DNA of 59,305 nt, the filler included, from Fonticula-like sp. SCN 57-25 (taxonomy: Eukaryota): assembly GCA_001724245.1 (NCBI GenBank). It is 8 parts of 8 records of this genome, joined end to end, with 100 filler letters (N's around TTAATTAATTAA, not from the genome) between each part and the next. Parts side by side here need not be neighbours in the genome. Positions count along the whole stretch, not along the records: positions 7,075 to 16,801 come from MEDX01000406.1; 7 more parts are not named here. One strand, given 5' to 3'. Each line of letters opens with the position of its first letter. Positions within the stretch are counted from its first letter, which is position 1. The position numbers were made by a program, and so were the translations under genes. Under the pieces are notes generated by a model. That model was not told where the DNA came from, searched no databases, and saw only the letters and a list, made by a program, of their open reading frames with translations. Of the stretch, positions 76 through 56,797 are shown piece after piece.

Positions 76-3000
76 TTACGTAAACGGCAGAATCCTTATC
101 CTCTTTGGCGTCGGCGGCGCACTTCCCTCGACATCGACGACACTCCCCGGCGTCCCCACCGAGATCGGCGAGCTCGCCTCTTCCGCCTCTGCCTGCTGCT
201 TCTTCCTCTTCCCCTTTGGCGACGCGGCTGCCGTTTCCTTTGTTTTCGCCTCGCCATTGACCGCCCTCTGCCTCTTTTTCTTTGCCACCGGCACTTCATC
301 CTTGCTTTCCTCGCCCTTGCGCTTGTCCGCCGCCGCCTGCTCGCTCCTCTTCACCATCTTTTCCTCGAGCTCCTTATCGTCCAATAGCAGCGACACAATC
401 TCTCTCCCTGACCTGAAATCCTCCATTCGAAACTGCCCGCCCTGAATGACCACCTTTTGAATCTCATTCTTTTGCTTGGCGCGCATTACAATCCGCTCCT
501 CAATCGACCCCTTTGTGATGAGCCGGTAAATAGTCACCTGCTTCTTTTGGCCGAGGCGGTGCACGCGGTCCATCGCCTGCTGGTCAACGGTCGGGTTCCA
601 GTCGCTCTCGAAAAAGACGACAGTGTCGGCGGCGGTCAAATTGATGCCGACGCCGCCAGCGCGCGTGCTCAGCAGGAACACAAAAATGTCATTGCGGTTC
701 TGAAAGTCGTTCACCATGTCGCGGCGGTCCTCAATCTTGGAAGAGCCGTCCAGGCGAAGGTAGCGGTAATTGCGGTAGCGCATATAGTCTTCAAGAATGT
801 CAATGATGCGCGTCATCTGGCAGTAGATCAGCACGCGATGGCCCTCATTCATGAGCTTGGGAAGAAGGCGGTCAAGGGTGAACAGCTTGCCGCTGTCATT
901 GATAAGGTCCTCTGGGTCGGGCACGGCCACAAACGAAAGTCCGCGCGGGAAAAGATTCGACTCGAAACCGCCATTGGAAACGACATCGGCGCCTTCAACG
1001 AGCCACTCGCCGCGCGCGTCCAGCGGCACAGAACGCACCGCAGCGCCCTCTGAAACCGCTCCTGAAGCATCATCATTTGAATCATTTACTGCTTTTCTGG
1101 CGGTCAATTCGATGCGGCCGTCGCGCAGGACCGACGCGAGCGGGTCGAGCGACGCCCGCAGCATGTCATTGGCGGCGGCGCGGTCGTGGCAGCGCACCTG
1201 CGGCAGCGACGCGATGGCCGCCGGCCGCACAAACGACAGGAACCGCTCGGCAAAGCAGCGCTCCTCGTCAAAGGCGCGCGCGCCGACGCGGCACAGCTCG
1301 GCGAGCGCGCCAGTGCGCTCAAAAGTAGCATTGTGACGCGCGTCCTGCCACGTCGGAACGACACACAAACGCGCGTGAGGGCGGTCATATTCGCCGCCGC
1401 TCTCGGCGGAATAGCGCGCGCGCGCCTGCGTCTTTGCCTCTGTCGCCAGATAAATCGCCCACTTTTCGAGCAGCGACGCCGCCGTTGCAATCGAAGCAGC
1501 CTCGGCGGGCGACATGTCGCACAGTCGCAGCACGGCCGGCACATTCTCCACATCCCACAAGTCGGCAACTTTCCTCGCGTCGCGCTCCCCCACAGCGAGC
1601 ATCTCGCGGTAGACGAGCTTTGGCAGGTCAAACCCGACCGGCGCGTCCGGCAAAGGCCTTATTGCCGCGTCGTCTGTCCGCAGCGCCGACGGAATGTAGC
1701 GCGACATTGGCAGCAATCTCATTGGCTCCTCTGCCTCCTTGCGCTCAAACAGCTCGGGGTGGTTGCACACCTTGCGGAACTGCATCACGAGGTTCATGAG
1801 GTGCTTTACGTTCTCGTCCGACATCAGAGACGATTTCTGGAGCAGCTCAGAGACGGAAATCTTGGCGCGCACGCCCTGGTACATGCGCCGCTGGCGGGCC
1901 GACATGACGCACGGCACGTCAATCTCAATCTTTTCGCCGAGCTCGTTCTCGACGTCCTTTTTCACGCGCCGAAGCATGAACGGCTTGAGGATCATGTGCA
2001 GGCGGCTGAGCTGGTGCTGGTCGAGCTTCTCGCCTTCGCCGGTCACGTGGCTCTCAATGTCCTTGGAGAACCACTCGCCAAACTCTTCGTGCGAGTCAAA
2101 CAGCGTCGGCATGATAAAGTGAAGCAGCGCCCACAGCTCCTGCATCGAGTTTTGAATAGGCGTGCCGGTAAGCAAAAGACGATTGCGGCAGTTGAATTTC
2201 AATAGAATGTTCCACCGCTGCGACTGCGAGCTCTTGAGCGCCTGCGCCTCATCAAGAATCATGTACTGCCAGCGGATGCGGTTAAAGTACTTTTCATCCG
2301 ACACGACCAGCTGGTAGCTCGTGATGAGCACGTGAAAGGCAGCGTCGCGGCCATACAAGTGCTTGGCATTCCAAAACTTGCGCAGCACCTTGCGGTCCTT
2401 TTGGCTGCCCCAATAAGGAACCACCTTGAAATCGGGCGTGAACTTGGTCAGTTCCTGCTGCCAGTTGTGCAGCGTCGAGACGGGCGCGACAACCAAAAAG
2501 GGGCCCCAAATGCCCTGCGTTTCGGCAATGTGCGCAAGCAAAGAAATCGACTGAACAGTCTTGCCGAGACCCATCTCGTCGGCGAGAATGCCATTGATGC
2601 CTTGCTCGTACAGATTGTTGAGCCACGAAAGGCCTTTGAGCTGGTAGTTTTTGAGGTCGCAATGCAAAAGTTTCGGCTGAGTCAGCATTGACTCTTCGCT
2701 GAGGCCGGAAGGGGCGGAAAAGTCAAGGCCGCTGTTGTCAAACTGGTCCTGGTTGAGCTTTTTGTTGCGGACGCCAGAGGCGTGGTGGCTGGAAGCTGCG
2801 GCCTCATCAAAGTTGCGGACGCGAGCGTGGTTTGCAGCGGCAGCTGAAGAGGGAAATGTCAGATCAAGAGGAACAGTGAAGGATTTCAGTCATCAATACC
2901 ACTCAACATCACTCAATACCACTCAACACCATTCAATACCACTCATTCAATACCACAAATAATCATCATCAATACCACTCTTTCAATAATACTCCAATTA

Positions 3001-4485
3001 ACGCACCGGCCTCGGCATTCTTTTGCGCCTCTGCGCGAATGGTCGCCTCGTCCATCTTGTCAAAGTCGAGCTGATTTGCCGACATTCCACCGGCGGACGA
3101 CAGCTGCGCAGCCGGCGCCAACTTGCGCTGAATAAAGTGACCATAAAGCTCCGTCTGCGTGATGAGGAAATTGAGCTTTTTCTGCTGCCGACGCGCCTCA
3201 CGAAGCTCCTCCTCTTGCTTGCGCCTCTCAAGCTCCTCCTTTTCTGCCTTCTTCCTCAAGTCACGCTCGTCGCGCTCGTTCTTCTTCCAGAACGAAAGCA
3301 TTTCGCGCATGATCTTCTTGGCCTTGAATGGCAGTTCCTTGTTCTTGCGCGCCGCGATTGTCGGGTACTTTCTCGCCTCGCGCGCGCAGTGCTGCGCAAT
3401 CTTTTTGAGGTTTCCGACCTTGTTTTGCGAGTTGACTTGCATCGCCTTTGCCGCGCGCATCACATCACGCTTGACAAAGTTGACCCACGTCTTCTTTTGC
3501 AGCTTCTCGCTCATCGTGGCGGGCACTTCGAGGCGCACCTTGAGCGACACCTGCGCGCCGCGGTTGCTGTCCTCCATGCGAGCGGCATACGCAGCGCGCT
3601 CATGCTCGCGAAGCTTTGCCCACGTGCCGCTGTACTTTACCATGCGGCGCTCGACTTGGCTCGCGTGGCGCGCATTGTCGGTTTCAAGCACTTCGACCTG
3701 CCGCCGCCACCGCTGCTTGACATAGTCAAACAGGTCGGACGGCGAGTACGGCGCAATTGGGTCGCGGTTCGTGGCGACTGTCGGCTCGCCAGTGAACAGG
3801 TCAGGCTCAACAAAGTCCTGCCAGAGGTGCTCGCGGTAGCCGACGGGCCAGTACGTGTACATGTGGGGCTCGTGGCGGCCGCCTTCGGCTGCACGCTCGG
3901 CGTCGACTTCGCGCTTGATCTCGCGGTACCAGTCGATCGGCTGCCGCCGCAAAAAGAGAACGTCGGGCTCGCCGTCTGCCGCCGACGCTGACGGCACGTC
4001 CTTTTCATTCGCCTCTGCCGCGACGCCGCCGTTCGCCATGAGGACGGGCGTCGGGTCGATCGCGGCATCGTCCTGCGATGCGCCGTGCTCCTTTTCGCGC
4101 TCGCGCTCACGTTCACGTTCGCGCTCGCGTTTCCTGCGCTTGCTCTTCTCCTGCGCAATCATGTCGTCAAGTTCGAGCTCGTGCGCCACCTGGTGATCGT
4201 CAAAGAGGCGCGATTGGGCCAGCGCGTCCGTTTGGAAAAAGTGCTCGAGCCGCGCATGGTAGTTGGGGCTGCCGGGCAAAGGGTAGCGCTCGCGGAGCCG
4301 CGCGCGCTTCTGCGCCTCAGCCGCGGCAACTTCATTGTGCTTTTGGCGCTGCTGGACCTGCTCGAGCCGACGCGATCGCCGGCCATGGAGACCGCCACTA
4401 CAGAGGGGAAGCGATTAACTTTAGCCAAACCGAGGCCAAACCAAAAGGGGAAATCGTACATGTCATCGTCCGCGAAGCCGCCCAT
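76..4485 (-). CDS. INO80: INO80 chromatin-remodelling ATPase (SNF2 family, DBINO domain), 3 exons
   Basis: DBINO motif (EELREARRQQKKLNFLITQTELYGHFI) in 2969-4279. SNF2 motifs GILADEMGLGKT, DEAQ, TGTPIQN and QAMDRVHRLGQ with a split helicase in 76-2688. GT-AG introns at ~4399-4459 and 2844-3006 join the ORFs in frame; ATG at 4485 (MGGFADDD). Confidence 0.95.
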
Positions 4486-5013: not shown

Positions 5014-5798
5014 ATGTCGGGGACAATGCCTGCGAGCCTCCGGGCCTCGCTTGATACGGGAGACGAGGACAGCCGCATGGCGCTCAACCTCAAGGTCATG
5101 CGGAGACAGCACTCTACTATCGAGCGGATCGTAGAGACGTTTTCGCACGCGACGCTGTACAAGCTCGATGAGACGCAGGGCAAGTGGGTGCGCGGCTTCA
5201 GGCAGGCTTGCCTTTCAGTCGTTAAGACGCTTGGTATAGGAAGGACCCGTGGGCAGCGGCCCTTTTTTCATTTTCAAGAGCACTCAGGCTCCGCATTTTG
5301 GCATCTTTCTGTTGAACAGCAAGGGATCTGACAATTTGTGCGAGTACATTTACGACGACATGGACATTCAGTTTGCGGACCCGTACGTGATGATGCGGCA
5401 AGCGTCGGGCGAGATCATCGGCATTTGGTTCTCGGACTCTAAGGAGGGCTCTCGCCTCGCGGCGCACCTCACCAACCTGGCGACGCCCGCGGGCCGCGAG
5501 GCCGCCCTCAAGGAGTTTGCAGCGGCCCCCGCCCCTCAGCAGTACGTCCCCCAACCTCTCGCCCTTGCCCTTTGTCTCACTATGTGTCCAGACCCGCTCC
5601 CGCCGTGAACGGCTTTTCTGTTGGCAGCGGCGCCCTTGGCGCGCTCTTCACCGCCGCCATCTCCTCGCCCGTCACTTCCCCGCCGATGCCCGCCGCCGCC
5701 GAGCCGGCCGCCGAGCCCACCCCCAAGCCCGCCGCCGAGGCCGCCCCGAAGCCCGCCAAGGCGTCGCCCAAGCAGGCCGGCGCGTCCATCATTGCCGC

Positions 5799-7074: not shown

Positions 7075-9121
7075 AATGTACCGTAGCCGTGAGTGCCGCC
7101 GTCATAGTAAGCGGGGTTTTGGTCAAAGCGGGCGCGCGTCGTCACCGAATAGTGCTAAAAATACCATATTAGAGACAATATTTATATCAAAAAATAAGCA
7201 ATTTTATATCAAATTCGTACCTGATCGGCGACGAGGATGAGCGGCGTAATGCGATGATGATTACGGTAATGATACCTTTCCAAAACAAGTTCACTTTCCG
7301 ACGCGTTTTCCTTCTTGTAAATGTCGTAATTGACCGCATTGGCGCTCAGATTCGCATAGACCGCATCAAGCGCTATCAAACCATATCAGAAAATACTGCA
7401 ATTTGATTGGTCAAGCAAAGGTCGTACCGCCCTCGTTGGGGATGATGGCCGTCACCGGCGACCAATCAACGATCGTCACAGTGCTCATATCGATGACGTC
7501 ATCAAGGAAGATCATGTGCGATTGGGTCGTCTGCGTCATGCCGTGATCGCCCGTGATGATGATGTCAACCTTGCTGGTGCGGCCAAGTGTCTCAATGCCG
7601 TCAACAAGGCGCTTGATTGCGTCATCAACTTCCTTCATCGCATTATCAACCTGGCCACGTGGTTAGAACAAAGGCAAGAAATAGAATGAGAAAGAGCAAA
7701 AACATTGATTTTCATTGGCTAAAGAGGGCTTTTCATTGGCTGGGAATTGCAAACTGAACGATTCCCATAGGCTATTCAACACATCCCATTGGCCATTTAA
7801 CGCTTTTCATTGGCCATTTCTTTCCTTTCCCTTTCAATTTCACTTTCACTTTCACTTTCAGTTTCCCTTTTCCTTTCCCGCGCACCTCAACCGAGTCTGG
7901 CCCATACGAGTGCCCCGCCGTGTCAACACCCTCAAAATAGAGCGTGATAAACTGCGGCCGCTCTCCACTATTGAAACCGAGCCACGTGAGCACTTGGTCC
8001 ACGCGGGCAGTGGCCGCCATAGAAGAGTCATATGGCATAAAGTAGGAGGGGCGGATGCCTTGGATGGGCGCCTCGGAGCCGGGCCAGAACATGCAGGCGG
8101 TCTTGAGGGAGTTGAATTCCATCGTGTTCCAGAACTAAATATTACGGTAAGATTACGGTAAAGTTACGAGGGAGTCACGTGTATAATACACAATAATGAC
8201 CATGTGGATATATATGGGTTACAACACACATAAAGCATAATATGTAAGATGAGGCCATATGGACCATTGTAAGACGGCAATCAAAATATGAAACATGACA
8301 GACATGAACATCACATGTAAATCAACCACGTGGCCATGTATCATGCAACAAAACCACCAATTTCCACGTGGACAGTCTCAAAAAGCCTCTCATTCCACTA
8401 CACGCGACACTCGACAACCCACGTGTAAAACGTACCGGTTCGCCGCCCCACCAGCTGGCATCGGTGATCGCCTCCTGGTTGCTCAGCGAAAAGTGCTCGT
8501 CGGTGATTGGGTCATACATGGTGTTGGAGACGATGCCGTGGGACTCGGGGTAGAGGCCTGTGACTATGGTGTAGTGATTCGGGAAGGTCTTGGAGGGGAA
8601 GGACGGATGCATCATGGTCGTCGAGACGCCACCAGCCGCTACGAAGAATGAGTAAAGAGGTAAAAGGCAATTGAAGCGTAAGCATAATAAAGGTAAAAAT
8701 TGCTTATAGAACACAAACTGGAATGAAATGACTGCCAGATCGACATCGGGACTCGACATCGGAACTCGCGGGATCCCTTCCGACCGACCCGATGCGTACC
8801 GATGCTGCTGATCGTCGGCGTGATGTTGCGGTAGAGGTAATCGTGCCTGAACCCGTCCAAAGAGATCAGAATGAGAGTCGTGTCCATCTTGCGACGCGAG
8901 GCACCCACGATCAGGACCACAACAACCACGACGATGACAAGGAAGAAGATTACAATCGAGATGCCCTTGCTCTTACGGTACCATGGCGTCTTCTAAACAA
9001 TGAAATATAGACGCGTTAACGGGATCTGTGTGGATATCAAGCAAGGTACCTTGGTATTCGACAGGAGGTCGTCAGATTCGTCGAGCAGCCCGTCGTTCGA
9101 GATCGCCTCCGACGGCATCAT
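7075..9121 (-). CDS. Ectonucleotide pyrophosphatase/phosphodiesterase (ENPP, type I phosphodiesterase), type II membrane anchor, 3' end truncated
   Basis: Motifs ILISLDGFRHDYL, PSFPSKTFPNHYTIVTGLYPESHGIVSN, WWGGEP, FWPGSE, LYFEGVDTAGHSYGP and IITGDHGM lie in successive exons. A hydrophobic helix precedes the catalytic domain. Confidence 0.92.
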
Positions 9122-9282
9122 GTCGTCTCGAGCCACAACAGACTCGTCACGTGACGTGTACAACTCGATTCCCAGAATCTGCCCTAAACCAACTTAAATC
9201 CACCCCTGATTCTGCCCCAAACAAGTTCCTGTCATCAAACGTCTCTCCCCCTGGCGGCGGCGCCGACCGAGGCCTGCCTCCG

Positions 9283-12200
9283 ATGGGAATCCCAAAGTTT
9301 TACCGCTGGCTCTGTGAGCGCTACCCGCTTGCTTCTCTCCCCGTGAGCGAGCACGACGCGCCGCCCTTTGACTCACTCTACATTGACCTGAACGGCATCC
9401 TGCACCCGGCCGCGCATCCGGATGATGACGCAATCGCCGTGGGACCGCATCGGCCGGAACACTTGATTTACGTGGCAGTATTCAACCACATCGACCATAT
9501 CGTACGTCACTATAGCCATGTGTGAATGTTGTAAGTGAAAAAGGGATGTTTTACCAAACGACCGGCCATCATCGTGTGCCTCTACCTCCTATGAACATTC
9601 GTATTTGGAGGTCGCCCTTTGCCTTAACCACCCTCTAAACACTCCTCTCTGTGTATTCACTCTCTATTTGATATTTAGTTTCGTCTAATTCGGCCGCGAC
9701 GCCTTGTCTTTATTGCCGCGGACGGCGTCGCACCCCGCGCCAAGACCAACCAACAGCGCGCTCGCCGCTACGCCGCCGCCTCTGCCGCCTCTTCCTCTGC
9801 CTTTGACTCGAATGCCATCACGCCCGGTACCGCCTTTATGGACCGCCTCGGCGCTCACATGGCGTACTACATCAAGGCGCGGCTGCATGTCGACCCAGCG
9901 TGGCGCGGCGTCACGGCGGTGTACAGCGGGTGCGACGTGGCAGGCGAGGGCGAGCACAAGATCATGGAACACTTGAGGGGAAGGGTTGGTGAGGCAGCAA
10001 ATGAGGGCATTTGTATATACGGGGCGGATGCGGTACGTGGCGCGGGGTGATTGATGGGAATATGTGTCTTTTCTGACACACTCGTAGGACCTAATTCATC
10101 TTATGCTTGCTTCGCATCTTCCCCGCATCGCCGTCCTCCGCGAAGATGTCCGCCGTGGCCGCTCCGAGTCCCTCTTTCCCTACTGCCGCTACCAACTCAT
10201 CACCGCATCTGTCCTGCGCGACTATATCGAAAAGGAGTTTCTTTCCCACGTGGCCACATCATCCAACCTTGAGCAAGTCATTGACGATCTTGTTTTGCTG
10301 AGCTGCTTGGCGGGAAATGACTTTTTGCCCACGTGTGCAAGTCTCTACATTGCCGATGGCGGGATGGATGTACTGTTTGAGGCGTATAAGCGCCACATGT
10401 CGGGTGGGGGAGGGCCGCTGAATAGGGCGGGTGTCGTGGACACGTGGGCGTTGGGGATGCTTTGTGGGGGGCTGGCGATGCAGGAGAAAGAGTTTGTTGA
10501 GGGGCGGGAGGCGAACATTCACGCTTTTAGAAAGGAAAAGGTACGTTGTGTAGCATGGAACGCAATGTGTCGTTGATTTCTTGTTTGCATCATTATGTCC
10601 ATTGTTGTGCAATATCATAACTAAATGCCCATTTTCTGATAGGAAATGAGAGGCGAATCGACTGAAATCGCGGTCGAAATTGCCGAATTGGCCTTTGATA
10701 TTTCCTATTCTCGCCCCTGTAAGCAAAAACTGCTTACCATTGACGACAAGCAGTACATTTTGACTCCTTCCCGCCTTTTTTTGCTCTGCGCTCTCCACGA
10801 ATATCTTCGCAGTTCATCCCCTTTTCTCCACATTCACCCCGCCATGCTGCCACAGCCCGGTGACGCCGACTTTGTATGCGCCATGGCAGAAGAAGCCGGC
10901 CTTGATGTTGAGCACTGCGACGGCGGTGCACTGCGCATTGACCGTGGTGAAATGGACGTTCAGTTTGCGGGGCTTACTTTGCGATCTTTTTGGGACATTA
11001 TTGGTGCAGAGCAAGAGAGTATTGTGGTCAATGCGGCCGCCGATGACTATTTGCTAAAGAGGGCGGTGTATTATATGCAGCGGTTTGATAATGTTCATCC
11101 GAAAAATGCACACAGTGTCGCACAAGACTACTTTAAAGGTGCGAATATTGCGCTTGTTTTTGTTGCTAAATACGATTGTAGGTCTTCAGTGGGTTATGCA
11201 CTACTATTATGGCGGTGTGCCATCGTGGGAGTGGTACTACCCGCACCACTATGCCCCGCTGCTCGTCGACATGCACCATGCAGCAGCGGCGATGCGAACT
11301 AGCAATCAATTTGCGTCATCATTTAATATGGGAGCGCCTCTGCCACCGCTCGTGCAGTTGCTCGCCGTCCTTCCGCCTTTATCTGCTCAGTACGATAATT
11401 GGCTTATACTCGTATATTGCTGACACATCACAAGTTTGCTACCAGCGCCACTTCAGGCGCTCATGACGGCGTCTGATTCGCCGTTACAGCGCTTTTACCC
11501 CGCGTCGTTCCGCGCCGACCAGAACGGCAAGATCGCCGACTATGAGGCAACCATTCTGCTTCCCTTTGTGGACATCAATGCGCTGCTTGACGCTGCGATG
11601 CCAATTATAAGCACACTGTCTGCGACTGCACAAGGCAGTACAATGACGTACATGTACAGCAAGGGTGCGGCAGTGGCGAATGAGGCGCCGCACGCGTGCT
11701 ATGAAAAGGTGTCACCGGTAAGTGTGAATGTGCGGCCGTGTTTTGTGAGCAGTGGCGGGAAGCGGTTTGGCGGGCTGCCGCGCAACGCAAAGGTGCGCTT
11801 TTACTTCAAGTTGTTTTTGCTGATGATGTGCAGGTGGAGTGGCCGTGGCGCGATAGGTTTCCCACAATACGACATGTGAGTGCGACTGCGACGCTGAAAT
11901 GCATCGGCGCAAAGATCTTTAACCGCGAGAGCAGGAACGAAAGGCGCGTCATTATTGATATTTTTTTCCTTGCTGACATATGTGATACAGTTTGGCGCTG
12001 ACGATACAATGGGACGCTGCTGCCAATGAATCAATCGATGCCAGTGTGTCGCTCCTCGGCCGCTATGTTTGGGTTGGCTTTCCCCGTTTTCTTGTCGGCC
12101 GCGTGTCGTACATTTTGCGAGCGGAGGGCCGCTTTGTTCCATCCTTCTCCAATGACACGTCATCAGTATATGATGTGGAATGGCACACGCCCGAGAGCCG

Positions 12201-14057
12201 CGCCGACTACAACAAGACATGCGCGACAATATCAACTATGTTTGCAAAGGTGTTTGGCCTCTTGATAGGCCGCGTGACGACGCTGATTGCCGTTGAATGC
12301 CCTGACTTTGTCTCTGCACCATCGTGGATGAAGCATGATGTCACCAAGGAGCATTCAATAGTACTCGTGCCAGCGGGGCTCGCGTTCAAGGATGACTCGT
12401 TGACCGACGCGGACCTTTCTACGTGGCCCGAGCATGACCAGCCAATGGTGGGCGTCAAGGGCGGGCGCTGCTATGCCAAGTCAGCGTGGCTGTCACAGCC
12501 AGTCGAGGCGCGCATATTTGCCGTCATGCAGCGCTACAGTTCGTACATTGTCGAGATGAAGCAAGGCGGCGTTCTTGAGCGGGTATGTTGTTTGTATTGT
12601 GATGTTTGGCTTATCTTTGGTGATTATAGGTGCCCGCGGCAGATGTTTTTTTGGCGGAGGAAGATGACGATGAAGATGGTGGCGGAAGGAGTGTGGGCGC
12701 GTCGTCTGGTGTATTGGACTATGAACAGGCACTACAGATGCTACCGGTGAGCGAGCGTCAGTGGACAATCAGTGGCGCAGCGGATATGATTGTTGATCCC
12801 GATGGCCGCGTGATGAGTCTTGTACCGATCGACGAACGCCACGGGATTTTTCGCTGCCCATTGGACGATGCGCATCAAGGAGGGACGCGCGTGCAGCTCA
12901 TTGAGCACTTGAATGATCATCACAGGCATGAACGGATTGCGCCCGGTCGACGCGCGGACACACGCCGAGCCGACCACCGTGACGTCGAAATGCCTGAAAT
13001 TGGTGCATTTGTACCAGCATCTGCAGAGTCTGATGCGATGATTGATGCTTCAGCATCAGCGAGTGTTGCTTTAGAATCAACTATCAATGCTCCTGAACCA
13101 GTGATGTGGAATCGATCAGAAGGGTCAGAGTGGTCCCGTGGCGTGCAAGTACAGCAAGCAAGCAGGCGACGTGCCCCTTGGAGCAGGTCGCTGGACGACT
13201 ACATGAAGACGGACATGGCGGCATTGCTTGCCTCGCCGCCAGAGACGATTCGGCTCAAGCGAAACGCTGACGGCGTCATCATCTGCCCGTTTGCCCCAAA
13301 GCACCTTGTACGTCTCTTGAACACTTTTCCGCGCATTCTCACTGTGACGTCATAGATTCCGGTGGCATCATTTCGCAAGCACTTTAGCCAAAAGCACTTT
13401 ATTCTGCTCGATCGATACGTCTTTGATGAAGCGGCCGTTACGCTGTGGGCATTTGACGATGCCGACGCGCCCTTTATGGCAAAGCAAGAAGAGGAATCAC
13501 GTGGTGCAACGGCTGATGTAGCGTATGATCGATCGGAGGAGGAGGAAGACGAGCTGGCGCAAGCACAGGACGACCCGCTTGACTATGTGCAAGGCTGGCA
13601 GGAACCGCAGCATTTTGATCACGTGACTACTGTAGCGAGTGACGCGCATTCTTTCCATGGGTCTGCTGGGCGCGGGCGCGGGAGAGGCCGCGGGAGAGGA
13701 CGAGGAAGTGTCGTTTTTGCCGCGCAGCCGCCGCATCACGCGGTACGACAAGTCTATTTTTTGCCTGTTTCTGACATGATGACGTAGCCAATCAGCGCTC
13801 CTGTGTACTACCCCCCTGCATCAGCGCACACTCAGCCATTGATGCATCAACCTCCTGCAACGGCCTATCTGCCGCCATTAGCTGCTTGGGTCGAGCAGTG
13901 CCAGCTGCCGGCGCAGTGCTTTGAACTGCTGTGGGTTAATGGGTTTGACAATGTGGAGCTGTTGGCGCAGCTTACCGACGCAGAGATGAGCGAGTTGTAC
14001 TCATTGGCTGCCGCGAGCTTGCCGCTCAACTCGCTGCGAGTAAACAATGTGTACTAG
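9283..14057 (+). CDS. XRN-family 5'-3' exoribonuclease (XRN1-like) with extended atypical C-terminus, multi-exon
   Basis: [95 protein letters not shown]. Intron 12583-12629 joins the body to the downstream ORFs in frame. Confidence 0.88.
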
Positions 14058-14289: not shown

Positions 14290-16505
14290 TTAGGCCTTGG
14301 CCTTGGAGCGCTTCGGTGGCGCACGCTGGGCAGTGGCTTGCGGAGCTTGCCGCGGCTCCTGCTGCCTGCTCCACTGCATCTGCGTAGTCACTTGAGCGAC
14401 GCCCGACCACTTTGTGGCCCACTCGTCATCAATCGTTTCGATTTCGTCGTCGGCTTGTCTCTTGTTGTTAATCATTGTCATGAACTTCGTTGCCTGCAGG
14501 AGACTCAGTTGTTTGTTGCTTGCGTTGACGATGCGCGTCGGCGAGAGCGAGCAAAGAGCTGCGCCGTCCCAGCCAGCAGACTCGAGTTGCTCGTACGGCG
14601 CGCCAAGCCGCTTGATCCAGTTGACCGTGTCCTCGACCGTCCACGAGAGAAGGAAACCGTCCGGCGGGTTGAACGACGGTCCGTAATCCATCTTGGAATG
14701 CGCAATAAAGCTGCAAAGGAGCAGCTTGGAAGCGTCCTTGAATGAAACGCCCATTCCAATGATATCGTCCATGTGGAGCATCGTCAAGACTTCGCCGTTG
14801 ACGCCCTGCAGAACGTTCGTCAAGTGTCCCAGACCAATGTCGCACAACCACTCCTTGAAGTTCTCCCCTCTGAGGTCGGACAGGCCGCTGGTGACGAGGC
14901 AGTCGGTCAGGCTGTCCATGGTGTTGGAGCACGATGCAAGCGTCAGGCTAAGCTCCTGCTTCTTCTCGGAGAACTCGATCAAATCGCGCGACTTTGCCAG
15001 ATACTCGGTCGACCGAAGGGTGGCCAGCGCCTGTCGCTCGTGCGCCACTGAACCAACGCAATAGAAAGTTAGGAACGGAAAGTACCAAAGCTCGACGCTC
15101 GTACGCTTTGTCTCAAGGTCGGAAATGGACTTGGTCAGGTCGCGCTCGCGGGCCATCTGCTGGCGAAGCTCCTTTTCGGTGACCTTGAAGGCCGAGTCAA
15201 CGGACTCGAGGCTGTTCCAGGTATCGGATAACAGCTGACGAACGCACACATGCGGAAACTTGTAGGGCGTTGTCGTCCAGATTTCAATCGATCCAGTGTC
15301 GGTGCCAAGAGCGACCTTGCCGGAAACGACGTCAAACGACATCGAACGAGGCTGCGATAATACCGACTTGTTAGATATATGTGTACAATTTCCGCGGTGC
15401 GCACCGTGTTTGTCGTGGCGACACTCTTTTGGGCGCTGCCGCCGGAAATCTGCCACGTACGAAGCGTCTTATCATGAGAGACAGTTATGACGTGATTTCC
15501 GTCGCCTAGGAAAGCGCCGGTCTGCACAAGGGCAGTGTGCCCAACCAACTCAGCGTGAGGAGTCGATGACCAGTCGGACCACGTGGTTCCAACCTTCCAG
15601 ACCGATGCCTTGGTGTCGGCGCTCGTCAACAGCAGATAGTCGCCAGTCCGGCTGAATGTAATGCTTGTCAGCTATCATAGTCGAATGTTGCCGTTAGCAA
15701 AGGGAGTAGCAATGACAGAGAACGTACGGCGCCCTGGTGATATCTGCTGGTCGAAATCTGCAGCCACTCGGTACGGGCAAACGCATAGATGATGAGGGCG
15801 CCGTTCGCGCAACCGACAGCAAGCAGGCTGCCGTTCGGAGAAAATTCCACGCGTTGCGGCTAAGCAAATGAATTAATATGCTGTTGCTGGGACAAGGCAC
15901 ATGGCATACCACAGCAGCAGTCACTTTCCACTCGAATAGGACCTTATCAAAGGAATCGTGGATAACAACGCCAATATTAGGACCACATAGAGCAACCATA
16001 TTCTTCTTGGCGTTGAATGCGCAACCGTGTAGCTAAAAAACAGAGCATTAGCGTTGGAAACTGCGGATTGCGTCGGAAGGAGGCGATCTTACAGCACCAG
16101 TCCCTTTGAAAATGGTTTTGTGTGTGCCTTTCTGCACGAGCACAGCAACGCCACCCTGCGTGACACCCAAGACACGATCGCCATCCTCGGACTGCGCAAT
16201 AAAGCTAACCTGCACACGGTGTGTTAGAGTAGCAGTCGGGAACAGCAGGCGAAGCGCACCGCAGAGCCGCATGCTGCCGTGTAGCTGATCGTTCCCGTCG
16301 ACAGGTCACTGATGTGGATGTTGCCGTCATTGGTGCACGATGCCAGAGAAGATCCGTCCTTGGAGATCAAGCAGCCGTCCACCTACACATACAGTGTAAG
16401 CATGAGACCAGAGGGGACCGCTCAACGCAACGCCGCGGCGTGGTGACATACCGGGCTGCTGTGATGCTTGAACGCCTTGTTCGAGTTTGAGAACGCGCTA
16501 GCCAT
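14290..16505 (-). CDS. WD40-repeat / coiled-coil / tandem SAM-like protein (paralog A)
   Basis: Exons give MASAFSNSNKAFKHHSSP|VDGCLISKDGSSLASCTNDG, EFSPNGSLLAVGCANG and LVGHTALVQTGAFLGDGNHVITVSHDKTLRTW. Heptad region, then FKEWLCDIGL...VNGEVLTMLHMDDIIGMGV and LLSWTVEDTVNWIKRLG...GWDGAALCSL. Confidence 0.75.
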
Positions 16506-20223: not shown

Positions 20224-21045
20224 CTATGAATTGACGGCCGCGCGCTTCTGCGGCCTGTGCAGCGACGTCGCGAGCACGGACGCCGCGGCCATGTCGGCCT
20301 CGAGCTCGTCCTGCGCGCGCTTGCGGTTCGCGAGCGTCGCCAGCAGCGCCTTCTTTGTCTCTGTCCTGCTGCTCGACTGAGCGGCGGCGGTCGGCTGCGG
20401 CGCATAAAACATGGGCTGCTGCTGCTGCACGAGGCCATAGTGCATGTGCGCGTACTGCGGCGCCACGTCGGTGTAGAGCGCCGCCATCTGCTGCTGCTGC
20501 TGTGGCGCAGCAGGGAGCAGCTGCGTGGCCGTCGGCGATGCGCGCTTGAGGTGATCGACCTGCGACTGCAGCTCGTCCTTTTGCCGCTTCAGGCACTCAA
20601 TGTACTTTAGCGCAAAGTTGAGCCGCCGCTTAACGTCCTTTTCCTCGTCAACGAGCGCGGCAGCAGCAGCAGCGCTGATCGCCGACGAGCCGCCGGCCGA
20701 CATGGCGCGGTCGCTGCCCGACGACCGCTGCTGCGATCCCAGCGAGCGGATGTGATCCACCGCCTTGCGCAGGATCTCTGCCTTGCTGTGGCACGGCTGG
20801 CACGACGGGACGACGCTCCGGAGCGACTCAAAGCCGCCATTGATGTTGGCGCGGCGCTTTTTCTCCGAAGCGAGATGCGCGGCAGAGCGCGCTTCGCTGC
20901 GCGACACGCGGTCAATCGCGGCATCATCGTCGGGAAGAGGGGAAACAGAGCGCGAATAAGAGTCGACAGATGAAGAAGAGGGAGAGAGCGTCGCGTCGTG
21001 CGCGAGCGCGCCCTCGACAACGCTCAGCAGGCCCGTAAGTGACAT
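20224..21045 (-). CDS. bHLH(-Zip) transcription factor, Mlx/Max/Mxd network-like
   Basis: AHLASEKKRRANINGGFESLRSVVPSC...SKAEILRKAVDHIRSL shows the H-x3-E-x2-RR basic region of E-box binders. A heptad segment follows. Likely ATG at 21045 (MSLTGLL). Confidence 0.88.
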   Translation of the reverse strand: MSLTGLLSVVEGALAHDATLSPSSSSVDSYSRSVSPLPDDDAAIDRVSRSEARSAAHLASEKKRRANINGGFESLRSVVPSCQPCHSKAEILRKAVDHIRSLGSQQRSSGSDRAMSAGGSSAISAAAAAALVDEEKDVKRRLNFALKYIECLKRQKDELQSQVDHLKRASPTATQLLPAAPQQQQQMAALYTDVAPQYAHMHYGLVQQQQPMFYAPQPTAAAQSSSRTETKKALLATLANRKRAQDELEADMAAASVLATSLHRPQKRAAVNS

Positions 21046-21120
21046 TCCCACAGCAATGCGCAGCCGAGACGACAGCACAATGACCCCGCAGCTCAGCTCA
21101 AAAGTGGTATTCTTGCATGC

Positions 21121-21173
21121 AGCCAATCAGACACGCGCAATGGCGTCGCCTTATGCAAGCTGGCCAATCAGAC
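21121..21173. promoter_or_regulatory. Tandem CCAAT boxes upstream of the bHLH gene
   Basis: GCCAATCAGAC occurs twice (~21122 and ~21163), about 80-125 nt upstream of the ATG. Confidence 0.55.
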
Positions 21174-21791: not shown

Positions 21792-22643
21792 TCACTTCTT
21801 GGGCGGTGCTACCCCGTGGTGACCCGGGTACGCCTGCGCGTACGACGGCATGTTTGAGCTGTACTGCGACGGCACTATAAACAATTGTCAGCAACACACG
21901 ATAATAAAAAAGAAAAAGTGGCGTGTGCCAAGCGCACCTCCCATGTAGGCCGGGGGGATCCCGGTCATCGGGTTCTGGTAGTTGCCGTACTGCGGCTGGT
22001 AGGGCAGGCTGCCCCCCATCGAGTACGAGTTGGGCATGTGAACCTGGTCGTGGTGGCCGCCCATGACGGGGAGCATCTGCTGCGCCGGGTTCGGCGGCAT
22101 CGGCTCGGCCTGCGATTCGTACATGCGCGTGGGCTGCTGCATCGCCGGCGCGTCGGACGAGTTGAGGCATGCCTGGATCAGGTTCTTGCCCTCGGGCTTG
22201 GTGATGAGCGGCTGCAGCTTGGGCGTCGCGAACGTGTAGACGTGGCCGGTCTCGGAGGCGACGAGCAAAAGGACCTGCGTGCCGGTGAGCGTGCTGAGCT
22301 CGTACGCCTTCTTCATGATGCCGGCCTTGCGCTTGCTGAACGTGATGTGGCGGCGGCTCTTGTCCTCAATAAACTCAATGTTGATCTTGCGGCGGCCGCT
22401 CTTCTTCTCGCCCTTGACGGCGGGGTCGGCCGTCTCGCTCTCATCGTCGTCGTCATCGTCGCTGCTGTCGCCCTTTGCACGGCGCTTGGATCCCGTGCTG
22501 GGCGCTGACTGGGCAGCCGCGCTCGAGGCAGCGCCGCCGCGCGAGGCAACAGCGCCGCCGCTCACAACGGCGCCCTCACCGAGACCGGCGGCATCACCAC
22601 CGACATTGTCCATAACACCTTCCTTGCTATCCTTCTGCTCCAT
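21792..22643 (-). CDS. SRF: SRF/Mcm1-type MADS-box transcription factor, 2 exons
   Basis: GRRKINIEFIEDKSRRHITFSKRKAGIMKKAYELSTLTGTQVLLLVASETGHVYTFATPKLQP. Intron ~21875-21937; final exon ends APPKK*. Confidence 0.95.
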
Positions 22644-23117
22644 GACGCGTATCCCAAATGACCGTTGGGACAAAAAACAAACCTAGCGGGCGAGGCGAGA
22701 TGAGGAAACGAGGCCGAAAAAAAAGTCGACGACAAAGGCTATGCATGGTTCATGATGGTGAGACACACACACCCAATGCCCGGCGGCATGTTGCACTGGT
22801 ACGCACCTATACCGGATACGGATCGCACTCCCCCTCAAATAGGCCTCTTGCTTATTCGGGCGGCGGGTCTGAGCCGAGAAAGGAGGGCGGAATCCCTTTT
22901 TCGGGCGAACACGGTGGTCGGGGGGACAAATATGCAGCCCCCCGTTGAATTTGGTATTCGCCGATCGAGAACCGGGGGAGGTCACGCAAGGCTACCCTTA
23001 ATCGTACCAACCGTTTTTGGATAGGATTATCGCATGCGACATTTCCTATTACCTTTTCGGGAATGCGGCAGAGGGAAATTTGGCGCCAAGCTCGGCATTG
23101 CGGCGCGCCACTGGGCG

Positions 23118-32917: not shown

Positions 32918-34533
32918 ATGGAGATTCCACTAGAGCCGCTGCGGGATGGCCGCCGTATTCCGGCGCCGGAACCGCATAGCCATGATGACAGTGAGCCTGC
33001 CGTTGTAGAGATGGATATGAGTGAAGGGGCGAGCATGAGCGAGGTTCAGGTTGATGGCAGTCTTGATGTCGATGATGATGGCCGGCCATTGACCCCCGAA
33101 GAGCAGCGGGAAAAGATGCAGTTTTACGCCGAGCAGGTCGTCGCGCTCATGCTGCCCATCCTGGCCACGTTTGTGCTGACGGTGTGGTGGGTGGACGTCA
33201 TCTACGGCGGGCGCAACGTCATCTATTCGTACGTCATGCCTCTTGTTTGTTGCGGATGATTCTGATGCTGTGAATAGGGGCGTGCTGCTGTACCAGGAGA
33301 GCACAGACGACTCGTTTTGGCAAGTCTTGCGCGGCTCTATCACGAACGCGCTTATTATTTTGGGAGCAGTACTGATCAGCACGTGTGTCTTTATCGCTCT
33401 CTTTTACTACAACTGCATGAAGGTGCGAAAAGTGACCGTTGTTGGCGTATCGAGAGGGAAAAACGTGTAATTATTTATGTATCTTATTTTGCCACTGTTT
33501 TTCAACTTTTCTTTTCATTAACCCTTTTTTGTCTTCTTCTTCTCTTTATTCCCAGATTATTTATGGCTGGATCGGCACATCAACGATCATGATCCTCGGC
33601 GGCATCGGCGGCATCGTCTTTTACCAGCTCCTCGCCGAGTACGATGTTGCCTTTGACTGGCCCACCCTCGTCTTTCTCCTCCTCAACTTTGCCGCCGTCG
33701 GCGTCACGACCATCTTTTGGCACGGCCCTCTTCTCCTCACGCAGTGCTACCTCGTCGTGCTGAGCGGCCTCATGGCGACCAACCTCGTCGCTCTTCCCGA
33801 ATGGACCGCCTGGGCGCTCCTTGCCGTCATCTCAATTTACGACCTTTTTGCTGTGCTTTGTCCACGTGGTCCGCTCAAGGTGCTTGTCAACACTGCGCAG
33901 GAGCGCAACCAAAGCATCCCCGGGCTCTTGTACAGCGCCGGCATGGCGCAGCGCGCGCGGTACACCCCGGCCGGCGTCTACGTCACCGTCGAAACCGACG
34001 ACGATGATCACGTGCCTGACCACATGGACGACGGTAACGTGGGCCTTCTCGAGAGTGCCGCTGCCGCTGCCGCCGCCGACGAGCAGGAAGATCTTGCCAC
34101 GATGGCGGCGGCGGCGTCCAAGCGGCGCGCGCAGGGGGGGGTCGAGCTGGCCGAGGCGGGCCCGGCGGGCGCGGCGGCGCTTCAGCAGCAGCAAGAGGAG
34201 GAGGACGACGGGGACCACCCGGTGCAGCTCGGTCTTGGCGACTTTATTTTCTACTCGGTGCTTGTCGGGCGCGCGGCGCTCACCGACTGGGTGACGGTCG
34301 TGACGTGCTCATTGGCGACCATGGTGGTACGTGCATGTGATTGGCGAGAAAACGATTGCTGACCAATGACGTTGTAGGGGCTGTGTATTACGCTGTTTTT
34401 GCTGGCGCTGCAGAGGAAACCGCTGCCGGCGCTGCCGATCAGTATCGCGTTGGGGATCGTGTTTTACTTTGCGACGAGCGCGTGTGTGAGTCCGTTTGTG
34501 GCGGCGCTCACAGTAAAGGGTGTGCATATTTGA
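32918..34533 (+). CDS. PSEN: Presenilin (gamma-secretase catalytic subunit)
   Basis: [23 protein letters not shown] (YD), [10 protein letters not shown] (GxGD) and last-exon LPALPISI (PALP). Stop TGA at 34531-34533. Confidence 0.96.
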
Positions 34534-49699: not shown

Positions 49700-51863
49700 A
49701 TGCCGGGCGACATCGTGCAAAGGACGTCACTGGAGCTTCACAGCCAGGAGGTGCGACATGCATATTTTGCTGCAGCCTCTGAACGTTTGGCAGGTGGAGG
49801 GATGTGCGCTGTCTCCCGATGGAACCCTCCTCGCAACCAGTGGTCAGGACGGGGTTCTGTGCGTCACCGACATCGCAAGCCAGTCAGTGGTGTACAGTGC
49901 CGAATTCAACGTCGTACGTTTTGCCCTTTGTGCACGTTCATTTGTGCTTAAAGAGCTGCATTGAAAGATATGGGGCGTTGCGTGGTCTCGTGATGGGTCG
50001 CGACTCGCCGCAGTGACCAACAACGGCAGCATCATGGAGGTTTTGAACTTGACATCCCTTTCAATTGTTCACGAAAGGCCAGCAGCCGTACGTTCTCCGT
50101 CATACACATAGTTGGAATTTTGACACAGTAAACAGCTCTACGGGTGCGCGTTTAGTCCGGACGGCCTGCTCGCAGTGTGTGGCGGCGATCGGTCAGTGAC
50201 ACTCCTTGATTCCGCCAACAACTATTCTGTCCGCCAGCATATCTCCGACCTTCCCGCTCTAGTGCGCCCCATTGTCCCGCGGCATTCATGCTCATTATAA
50301 CCCGACCAATAGGTATTTCGCGTGGCTTTCTCCCCTGACAGCCGCCTGCTCGTCGCAGGATGCGAAGGCGGGCACATTTGCATATTTGAGCAGGCAGGTG
50401 GCCGCTGGGCCAAAGTGGCATCGCGCCAACCCCCCTCGAGCGAGGTAAGTACTTTTTGTTTTATTTGCTTTTAGTTTATATTGGTGCATTATGCGTTGTT
50501 TTTGATTTCTTTTAAACTATTTCGAGCTGTGCATGATTCCTTCCTCTTACCCTCTGCATCAGGTCTCGTGTGTTGCGTTTAGTCCATCAGGAAAGCTGCT
50601 GCTCTCGTGCGGTGGCAAGTCTGCGTCGCTCTGGTCGGTTCCCTCGCACGGCCGCGAGTGGCCCTCATCGCCGTACACCGTGCTGCGTGGCCATCTTATG
50701 CATGTGATCGGAGGCGCGTTCCTCAGTGACGAAGAGCGCATCGTGACCGCCTCGGTCGACAGAGCGCTGCACGTGTGGCGCGTGTCGGATGGGTCGCAGC
50801 AGACAAGTGTCGAGTGCGGCTCGGTGCGCACAATATTCTTTTCATTTTGTTGCCGCTTACACCGCGTGCGCAGGCGCTGTCGCTGGCCTTGCACTCTGCC
50901 TCCGGCACTCTGGCGCTCGGCCTCGAAGACGGTGCCGTCGAGCTATGGGCCTTGAACGGCGGCGTGGCCGCGGAGAAACAAGGCGGCTGCTTGCGCGAGC
51001 TGCGTGCCACGACAGAGACGGAGCTGCACAACGCAGAGACGCAGCTTGGGCGCCTTTCTGACGCGTTGCGTGAGCCAATGTCCCGTGAGCAGGAACTGAC
51101 AAGCTCGATTGCCGCTCTTGAGGCCAACCGTACGAACCACATGTCTTTTATAGTTTTTTTTAACGTGTTTATTCTGCGTGCAGTGGAACGTGAAAAAGCC
51201 GAGCTTGTTGCCTTGCAGACGGCGTCGTTCCTAGCGAGCAAGTCCGAGCTCAGCGTGCTGACGGATCGGCGCGACGTGCTGCTTTCGCGCTTGATAGAGT
51301 GCGACCGGACGCTCGCGCGCCTCAGCGAGAGTGTGTCGCAGCACGGAATGGACGGGCTGCGCGGCGACCTCTTTGCCGAGTGGCTGTGCGACATTGGGCT
51401 GCGCAAGCTGCAAGCGGATCTCAGAGACATTGACGGCGAGTCGCTTGCCATGTTGGACATTGCGAGCACCCTCGACATGGGCCTCTCGTTTAACGATGCT
51501 GCTCACCTGCAGCTGCGCGGATTCGTGGCGCACTGCGGCCTCGGCGAAGCTCCTACATACGAACCGCCTCTCGGCTCGATGCTCGCGTGGACCGAAGAGC
51601 AAACAGCAAGCTGGCTGGCATCGTTGGGCGAGCCGTTTTCATCGCTCTCGTCCGCGGGCTGGCACGGGGCCGCCTTGTGCTCCCTGACGCCGTCGCGCGT
51701 AGCAGAGGCGAGCAAGGGGACGATCCGCACCGCCGGGGCGGTTCAGTTTATCAACCTCGTCAGGGAGAAGCGAAGGGAGGTTGACGGGACAAGATCCGCA
51801 TGGGTGGCAGAGCGGTCGGGGGCGACATGCGCGCGGCAGCAGACCCACCTAGTAGACAAGTGA
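49700..51863 (+). CDS. WD40-repeat / coiled-coil / tandem SAM-like protein (paralog B)
   Basis: MPGDIVQRTSLELHSQE|VEGCALSPDGTLLATSGQDG, VAFSPSGKLLLSCG, LRGHLMHVIGGAFLSDEERIVTASVDRALHVW. Heptads, then FAEWLCDIGL...IDGESLAML and MLAWTEEQTASWLASLG...GWHGAALCSL. Confidence 0.78.
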
Positions 51864-55400: not shown

Positions 55401-56797
55401 TCTGCGGGTCCTCGTTGACCACTGCGCGGTTGACGATGAGCTTTGCCCTATCGGCGTACCGCAGCGTCGAGAGCGTCTCTTCAAAGTTGTCCGCCGACGG
55501 GCTGATCGCCGCGAGCATGATTGTCTTTGCGTTGCCGCCGAGCGACTGCGTCAGCAGCCACGTGAGGACACTGTCGCGGTATGGAATAAAAACATTCTTC
55601 TTGGACGACGCGAGCGCGAGCGCCGAGATGACGCGGCCGAGCGCCGACAGCGACACGTTAATGCTCGCGCCTTCCTTGAGTCGCTCGTCCGTCGCGCCCG
55701 TCTTGGAAACGCGCTCGCTGCCGGCAAGGTCGACCAGGTTGATCACAGACACTTTTTCGCTGCCCTTGCCAGAGTCGGGGTGCTTGACCATTTGGGAAAA
55801 GGACAGCGTAAAGATGGCGTGACTGCGCGAAGAAACGTCGTTCATGTTGGTCGCGGCGACAGTACGCGCCTTGTTGCCAAGGTCAATGAGCTGCTTGACG
55901 CTGTCGAAATTGCTCGCGGCAAACATGGAAAGGTTCTCGACATACGGGCCGGTGACGGGGTGTGAACGGATCTTGAGGCCTTCCGACGACTGCGTCAAAC
56001 CAAAAAGGGGTTAAAAAGACGCAAAAAAGAATGGAAAGCGAACCTTGTTCTTGCCGGGGTCCAAAAGGTCGCGGATCCGCTCGTTATAGATCTCCATGTA
56101 CGACACCTGAAGGAGGTAGCTGTGGTTCGGATCCTTGTCGGCTTCCATCGTCTCAAAGAGACCAGCGCAGATGCGCGGAATAAGACCTTCGTCGTCGGGC
56201 AGACCCATCATGCTGCGGTACAGTGAGCGGCCATGCGCGATTGCCGCGGCGAAGCGCGTACCTGAACGACTTGCCGGCGCCGGTCTGGCCGTACGCAAAG
56301 ATCGAACAGTTGAATCCTGTGCGCCAATGAGTCAAAAAGAGCAAAAAGATGGACATGCGTACCCTGCCTCGCATTGTTCAGGCAGTCACGCCCGATATCT
56401 TCAAAAATGTCTCCGTTCGTTACAAAATCGGGATCGTTCTTGTCAAAACTACGCGGTCGCCGAGCGTCAACGGTCATGCGGAATCGATGCGGGAACCGCG
56501 CGTACCTCCAGTAACTATGGTCAAAATGAAACGTATGCTCCTTCTGCTTACCTTTGTCCTGTGCTTCCTGCGGGGCTACTATCGTTGTGGACTCTGTAAC
56601 GGCGTCAGTACCGGCGATTACGTATGACCAGTATGCACGTACTGCCACCATGCATGGAAATCGCGCATTCGCTTCCCAAATCTATTTCACTTTTGGATTT
56701 CGGTGTAAGCATATCAAATGTTTTTCTGTCGAACACTGGCATACCGCTGCGTGAATGGCCGCACGCGCACCACCACCTTGACGTTGGACGCGGCCAT
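52417..56797 (-). CDS. Kinesin-3 motor (KIF13/KIF1-like; motor, FHA, C2-like and DUF3694-like regions), 3' truncated
   Basis: [87 protein letters not shown] precedes the FHA, which ends GTNHMFRF. Confidence 0.93.

Follow-up and report, generated by a model that had tools for sequence, protein, structure and literature searches.

A WD40-helix-SAM-SAM gene pair in Fonticula-like sp. SCN 57-25, candidate U-box-less relatives of WDSUB1-like ubiquitin ligases

In the passages of Marin (2010; PMC3087547) that treat WDSUB1, this protein is composed of seven WD40 repeats, a SAM domain and a U-box, its bona fide members occur in animals only, and a choanoflagellate WDSUB1-like gene encodes two SAM domains and a U-box without WD40 repeats. 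WDSUB1 is further described, in the part of PMC10238197 that concerns it, as an E3 ligase recruited by the scaffold whirlin. Here we analysed a 59,305-nucleotide stretch of DNA from Fonticula-like sp. SCN 57-25 (hereafter the window), which consists of eight contigs, each about 7-10 kb long, with linkers between them given as N/TTAATTAATTAA. Two of its genes, gene A on contig 2 (7075-16801, minus strand) and gene B on contig 7 (45426-52316, plus strand), encode WD40 repeats followed by a helical region and two SAM domains. Our best explanation, to which as a whole we give an even chance, makes A and B old paralogs within a family of eukaryotic genes that is lineage-restricted.

Other described proteins share parts of this layout. 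Liprins have three SAM domains and N-terminal coiled coils, SARM1 has ARM and TIR domains, and CASKIN proteins carry ankyrin and SH3 domains. Like liprin-alpha/beta, SARM1 and CASKIN, which gave the best profile and structural matches, A and B have two consecutive SAM domains separated by a short linker. Unlike them, A and B join this pair to WD40 repeats and a stalk, and their SAM-SAM orientation differs from that of the known tandems (root mean square deviation, rmsd, about 9-12 Å); the likeness to SARM1 is confined to the tandem SAM, ARM and TIR domains having given no Pfam matches in A or B. Fungal NWD/HET STAND receptors are built from a NACHT/NB-ARC NTPase and highly similar, hypervariable WD40 repeats. 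A and B resemble these receptors in joining WD40 repeats to an assembly module and in a possible family expansion, but they have no effector, neither protein gave a Pfam match to a NACHT/NB-ARC NTPase domain, and their blades are not near-identical. Finally, PRP19 combines a helical oligomerisation stalk with a WD40 propeller and a U-box, the last of which is found here in relatives of A and B; however, its domain order (U-box, coiled coil, WD40) is the reverse, and it has no SAM domain.

The two gene models were derived from raw sequence by three-frame translation, GT-AG sites and frame continuity, from genomic DNA alone:

16505-14290, minus strand: gene A, 8 exons, 606 residues
16505-16452, 16382-16260, 16209-16093, 16032-15910, 15859-15728, 15671-15405, 15351-15105 and 15047-14290 (including the stop), minus strand: exons of gene A
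49700-51863, plus strand: gene B, 8 exons, 581 residues
49700-49750, 49794-49913, 49968-50087, 50136-50261, 50313-50444, 50563-50823, 50874-51129 and 51184-51863 (including the stop), plus strand: exons of gene B

The seven introns measure 69, 50, 60, 50, 56, 53 and 57 nt in gene A and 43, 54, 48, 51, 118, 50 and 54 nt in gene B. All 14 have GT-AG ends, 12 have donors of the form GT[AG][CT]G[ACT] (the other two being GTAAGA and GTAAGT), and several contain CTAAC-like branch sites. Intron 5 of gene B (50445-50562, 118 nt) is AT-rich and about twice as long as the other 13 (43-69 nt).

The spliced proteins were identical at 190/566 positions (34%; BLASTP, E 1e-110), a similarity far beyond chance. 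Identity was highest in the SAM domains (46% in SAM1, 44% in SAM2) and lower in the WD40 region (32%) and the stalk (26%). In a global alignment, all seven introns fell in identical columns (17, 58, 98, 141, 185, 274 and 359) with identical phases (0,0,0,0,0,0,1). An earlier note on this DNA had proposed that the two C-termini align, that both genes have an intron before the sequence VDGC or VEGC, and that each has a stop-free intron whose length is a multiple of three (3n). All of this was borne out: the peptides that it cited are present and aligned, the common intron lies at 16451-16383 in A and 49751-49793 in B, and the 3n stop-free introns lie exactly where claimed, at 15048-15104 in A (57 nt) and 51130-51183 in B (54 nt). 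By our estimate, an intron is both 3n and stop-free by chance with a probability of about 1/3 x 0.4, and the remaining 3n introns of A and B, read from raw sequence, hold in-frame stops. Among relatives found in databases (described below), most open reading frames (ORFs) begin 3' of the 3n intron and a minority read through it, and the residues that it would encode are not conserved. The 3n stop-free intron is thus probably a phase-1 intron of the usual kind, kept at one position throughout the family.

The WD40 region is N-terminal in both proteins:

15253-16505, minus strand: gene A WD40 region, residues 1 to about 305, seven blade-sized units
49700-50972, plus strand: gene B WD40 region, seven units, exon layout as in A

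The seven units were delimited by eye and by exon structure: after 17-18 N-terminal residues in both proteins, exons 2-5 hold one unit each, exon 6 holds two and the start of exon 7 holds one. In gene A, Pfam WD40 was matched by exon 6 (33.7 bits, cutoff 27) and, more weakly, WD40 or beta-propeller families by exons 2 and 5, with no match in exons 3 and 4; in gene B, the ORF at 50506-50955 scored 43 bits. Exon 6 of gene A matched generic WD40 proteins in the PDB, and the Pfam match to the Prp19 WD40 family was far below its cutoff. Blade-to-blade identity within A averaged 21% (maximum 32%), and Tandem Repeats Finder returned two trivial rows only for tandem DNA repeats. The sequences thus depict the WD40 blades as old and divergent, and the parallel that the earlier note drew with the variable WD40 repeats of NWD/HET receptors fell, given this low identity and the lack of both DNA repeats and an NTPase. 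A WD40-blade-like segment was also seen in 11 of the 12 relatives' ORF fragments that have at least 130 residues upstream of SAM1 (in 6 of the 12 by regular expression, in 5 more by eye); the twelfth, P0069, begins within the stalk. A WD40 partner therefore characterises the family.

Both last exons were modelled in AlphaFold2 from an alignment of relatives. The features of this part of the proteins are:

14890-15252, minus strand: gene A stalk, residues about 306-407, split by intron 7 (15104-15048)
14692-14874, minus strand: gene A SAM1, tail residues about 58-118, with an EWLCDIG motif; SAM_1 22.6 bits
14440-14658, minus strand: gene A SAM2, tail residues about 130-202, with SWT..T.NWI and GW.GAALCSL motifs; Foldseek single-SAM matches
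14401-14421, minus strand: gene A W-x3-W-S-G motif directly after SAM2
14293-14400, minus strand: gene A low-complexity basic tail
51357-51791, plus strand: gene B tandem SAM (SAM1 about 51357-51539, SAM2 about 51573-51791)
51801-51821, plus strand: gene B post-SAM2 motif, W-x3-R-S-G

Both models were of high confidence, with predicted local distance difference test (pLDDT) scores of 92.1 for tail A and 96.1 for tail B and predicted template modelling (pTM) scores of 0.83 and 0.86. In each, a long helix spans residues 13-52 or 13-57, and two bundles of five helices come after it; in tail A a shorter helix at residues 2-10 precedes the long one at 13-52. In Foldseek searches of the PDB, the matches with the best E values for both tails were SAM-domain structures, mostly tandems, among them liprin-beta SAM123 (3tad), SARM1 SAM1-2 (6qwv, 6o0s), the CASKIN2 tandem and the single SAM domains of Ph, Scm and L3MBTL3; for tail B the best were the liprin-beta and SARM1 tandems. 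Single SAM domains superposed with template modelling (TM) scores of 0.67-0.79 and rmsd of 2-3 Å, as for SAM2 of gene A on 1pk1_C (TM 0.79, rmsd 2.0 over 66 columns). In addition, the family profile matched liprin-beta-1 (3tad_C) across both SAM domains (E 1e-5), and the SAM1 profile matched the SAM2 profile (hhalign, E 2e-4, probability 45%). As modelled, the tail of both paralogs is a tandem SAM, confirmed by fold and not by Pfam, whose SAM cutoff was passed by only one of 29 relatives scanned (P0029, 25.5 bits). The order proposed in the earlier note, WD40 then a helical region then SAM-SAM, accordingly agrees with both the WD40 matches in Pfam and the PDB and the tail models. In the post-SAM2 motif, gene B has an Arg where nearly all relatives carry the second Trp.

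Relatives were few, fragmentary and unnamed. An exhaustive phmmer search with the last exon of gene A (251 residues) gave 34 matches at E <=1e-3 among 1.84 billion cluster representatives, 26 of them at 1e-10 and 11 at 1e-30. All were unnamed ORF fragments of 79-422 residues, such as prokaryotic gene calling produces on intron-containing DNA. A profile search at 90% clustering, which scored only the 8000 candidates sharing most words, yielded 46 proteins, 42 from ENA only, two from ENA and Logan, one from Logan and one from JGI; the sole label among them was 'hypothetical protein'. Among longer proteins, a single-sequence word search gave one match, a 448-residue ORF fragment, and a profile search of lengths 785-2240 residues gave none. 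The tail of gene A had no match at or above 0.9 in the protein atlas (best 0.76), and none of 16 pattern matches in 185,579 bacterial and archaeal genomes (GTDB) was confirmed as a relative. Within the window, tblastn and a tail hidden Markov model run over 1127 six-frame ORFs recovered A and B only (next best E 0.54).

P0072 (350 residues) corresponds to the read-through ORF of gene A (14293-15342) except for one residue, a His in place of Gln near the C-terminus, and the tail of P0002 is 92% identical to that of gene A, which is therefore present in no fewer than two close strains or species. P0013 looks frameshifted midway in SAM2, and P0001, in which the conserved stop is missing, continues for about 100 residues through a T-rich region downstream; these two may be pseudogenes or sequencing errors.

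Both proteins end shortly after the second SAM domain. Pfam scans of the exons found no U-box, NACHT or TIR domain, as the earlier note had stated, and none of the 203 window ORFs of at least 110 residues contained a U-box, TIR, NACHT or further SAM domain at E <=1e-4. Nor was there a U-box, TIR or NACHT domain in ORFs downstream of either stop. Between the stop of gene A and the 3' end of an XRN1-like gene that converges on it there are about 230 nt, too few to accommodate another exon, and the 453 nt between the stop of gene B and the end of its contig hold no U-box-like ORF. Of the 75 relatives collected, 73 have a W-x3-W-type motif after SAM2, W209 is nearly invariant in 35 aligned sequences, and in 49 of the 73 the ORF ends within a 3-residue window 3' of the motif. 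Because so many ORFs stop at this same place, the C-terminus without a U-box is probably genuine and conserved.

Two distant members of the family end differently. In P0028 and P0031 the same SAM-SAM-W motif is followed directly by a U-box that scores 32.5 and 37.8 bits, respectively, in Pfam (cutoff 21.4), and the U-box of P0031 matches those of plant PUB12 and CHIP in the PDB. The C-terminal end of P0033, compared by eye, resembles the start of these two U-boxes. Because P0028 and P0031 end in a U-box, the family looks, from its sequences, like a U-box-less relative of WD40-SAM-U-box ligases such as WDSUB1, and we take A and B to be a new U-box-less variant of the WD40-SAM(-U-box) kind. Like WDSUB1, they have WD40 repeats (seven units, delimited by eye) and then SAM, with a U-box in distant members; unlike WDSUB1, they themselves lack the U-box, have two SAM domains instead of a single one, and possess a stalk of about 100 residues, the conserved W-x3-W motif and the early stop. 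WDSUB1 had been cited in the earlier note as a mere analogy, but two distant members of the family carry a C-terminal U-box, which places the family nearer to the known WD40-SAM-U-box kind than to an entirely new one. As the earlier note suggested, the family is undescribed: it has no name, no Pfam family of its own and only the few tail matches listed above, and our literature search, mostly of listings, found no description of a WD40-helix-SAM-SAM family.

The only signals found in A and B are those of parts for protein-protein interaction. Beside the architecture, paralogy, rarity, U-box-bearing relatives and early stop that were observed, we infer target binding, oligomerisation and a link to ubiquitin. 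In our model, the WD40 face would bind a target, and the stalk and tandem SAM would join the proteins into homo- or hetero-oligomers within the family, U-box-bearing members among them. Since A and B lack a U-box, they would act not as ligases but as non-catalytic adaptors, regulators or decoys. That A and B are U-box-less adaptors, regulators or decoys in a WDSUB1-like ubiquitin-ligase system seems to us about as apt to be right as wrong.

Several observations weigh against this reading or the models beneath it. Both gene models are predictions from genomic sequence. Pfam SAM_1 reached 22.6 bits in A, below the cutoff of 23, and Pfam SAM was silent in gene B. The Foldseek E values were weak (best 0.024, none <=1e-3), and superposition of both domains on known tandems gave an rmsd of about 9-12 Å, so that the mutual orientation of the two SAM domains differs from the known one. 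In a crude heptad scan, no window of A or B exceeded the 95th percentile of shuffled sequences; of the coiled coil proposed in the earlier note, the AlphaFold2 models bear out a long helix, but the scan gave no support for heptads. No sequence link to animal WDSUB1 was obtained, the tail phmmer search among 1.84 billion representatives having given nothing longer than 422 residues, and the Atlas structural rows that connect P0031 with WDSUB1 clusters, at TM scores of 0.23-0.32, serve as a lead only. For these reasons, namely the absent U-box, the second SAM domain, the missing sequence link and the low TM scores, A and B are not filed as WDSUB1 members. Furthermore, the ORF fragments of the relatives can be cut by introns, which makes the absence of a U-box less certain in them than in A and B. 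Loss and gain of the U-box cannot be told apart, the tail tree being unrooted and giving no direction.

This maximum-likelihood tree was built from 69 tails, after short or frameshifted sequences had been dropped (P0013, P0018, P0025, P0029, P0034 and P0035); its bootstrap was not fully settled. It splits the tails into a near group (n=53) and a far set (n=16), the latter holding both U-box proteins (support 97/94). In the near group, a long branch carries A together with P0002, B lies on its own, and 42 core rows make up a star-like bush that is poorly resolved. Identity among the bush tails, some 40 of them distinct (P0036-P0075 and P0001), is 53-93% (median 73%), and their identity to A and to B alike is about 44-50%. 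The 46 relatives from the profile search comprise two of A type (P0072 and P0002), none of B type and 40 of the bush. Had the bush consisted of orthologs from 40 species, many A-type and B-type sequences would be expected beside them; the bush is therefore probably a multicopy family of one or few genomes, possibly of this one. The recombination signals given below fit this view.

The window also contains the following genes:

79-4414: INO80-like gene
5240-5605: DCP1
9004-14057, plus strand: XRN1-like 5'-3' exoribonuclease, with XRN_N, XRN_M and XRN1_D1 matches over several exons; convergent with gene A
20227-21126, minus strand: bHLH-domain ORF on contig 3, adjoining the MADS-box ORF
21891-22682, minus strand: SRF-type MADS-box ORF on contig 3, adjoining the bHLH ORF
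33436-34359: presenilin
52824-56010: kinesin-3-like gene with FHA and DUF3694

An MFS transporter is also present, and the gene content of the window is an ordinary eukaryotic set. The XRN1-like gene has a run of RG repeats in its C-terminal part; a SAM_1 match in its last ORF (13788-14054) reached an E value of 0.16 only and was rejected as evidence. An Rfam scan of the window found no RNA families.

These surroundings bear on the possibility that A and B belong to an ordinary conserved scaffold, with a cytoskeletal, trafficking or RNA-related role, which arose by plain old duplication in a lineage without annotated genomes and has no link to ubiquitin. The housekeeping neighbours (XRN1-like, MFS transporter and INO80-like genes) speak for it, as do the age of the paralogs, 34% identical, with intact ORFs and conserved introns, and nearly all relatives lie on unannotated contigs. 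For a widely conserved housekeeping factor, however, it is odd that no full-length annotated protein has the tail and that just 34 of 1.84 billion representatives do. U-box-bearing relatives exist, and housekeeping genes seldom form a bush of some 40 close copies. We consider this explanation doubtful, though it is the most serious of the alternatives.

The bush itself raises another possibility, that of an expanded sensor family in which a variable WD40 region recognises non-self and the tandem SAM polymerises, as in an innate-immune-like or allorecognition system. A and B would then be divergent members of a large recombining family, a STAND-less, SAM-based sensor or adaptor, possibly feeding the U-box relatives, in defence or self/non-self recognition. 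The count of about 40 tails, 53-93% identical, against two of A type and none of B type in the same search is consistent with this, as are the star-like tree and signs of mosaicism: P0041 resembles P0037 in its N-terminal part and P0042 in its C-terminal part (permutation p 2e-4), the maximum chi-square was at least 18 in 130 of 27,417 triplets, some false positives being expected, and in a test of the pairwise homoplasy index (PHI) type the compatibility seen between neighbouring sites was equalled in none of 5000 permutations of the alignment columns. Also on this side are the apparent frameshift in P0013, the SAM part of A and B being more conserved than the WD40 part, and the presence of the SARM1 tandem SAMs among the best structural matches. 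The recombination tests were run on protein alignments, and their signals suggest a multicopy family or else chimeric metagenome assemblies, which could mimic mosaicism. The large lineage-specific expansion put forward in the earlier note was thus supported indirectly by some 40 distinct, apparently recombining relatives; the window itself holds two demonstrable copies. Against a sensor family stand the lack of any TIR, NACHT, nuclease or pore-former domain in A, B or the 203 ORFs of at least 110 residues, and the blades of A, which at 21% mean identity and without DNA repeats are unlike those of NWD/HET receptors; moreover, the roughly 40 relatives are known from their tails alone and may stem from more than one genome. 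We regard this explanation as unlikely, and the immune role floated in the earlier note is left unsupported.

It is less likely still that A and B are not paralogs of one genome but orthologs or other relatives, brought together from two different organisms in a single assembly or bin. The contigs are unlinked, and the tails differ in composition: the GARP fraction (Gly, Ala, Arg and Pro) is 0.17 in A (14293-15045) vs 0.31 in B (51186-51860), and the FYMINK fraction (Phe, Tyr, Met, Ile, Asn and Lys) is 0.23 vs 0.11. This is despite a similar GC content at third codon positions (0.71 in A, 0.73 in B), which lies within the range of the other window ORFs (0.56-0.81) and, being both alike and typical of the window, fits the presence of A and B in one genome. 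The two genes also have introns of the same size with GTRYGN donors, and they are about equally far (44-50% identity) from the large group of relatives.

That the models are artefacts or pseudogenes made of chance ORFs is hardly credible, for although they were built by eye from GT-AG sites in genomic DNA alone, two independent loci have the same 8-exon structure and open frames, a 92% identical tail occurs elsewhere (P0002), and both tails fold at pLDDT >92.

If A and B are indeed U-box-less members of a WDSUB1-like system, ligases of the WD40-SAM-U-box type would not be confined to animals and their closest relatives, and in at least one other eukaryotic lineage they would have given rise to a U-box-less offshoot that is apparently multicopy and ends in a tandem SAM of a new type. 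The family would then be a case of an E3 ligase scaffold turning into a family of non-catalytic adaptors or decoys. Its tail offers a confidently modelled new arrangement of tandem SAM domains that can be compared with the liprin and SARM1 assemblies. The interest would be greater if the multicopy subfamily shares one genome and has variable WD40 surfaces: a recombining multicopy subfamily within one genome would be a candidate diversifying recognition system without the usual NTPase core.

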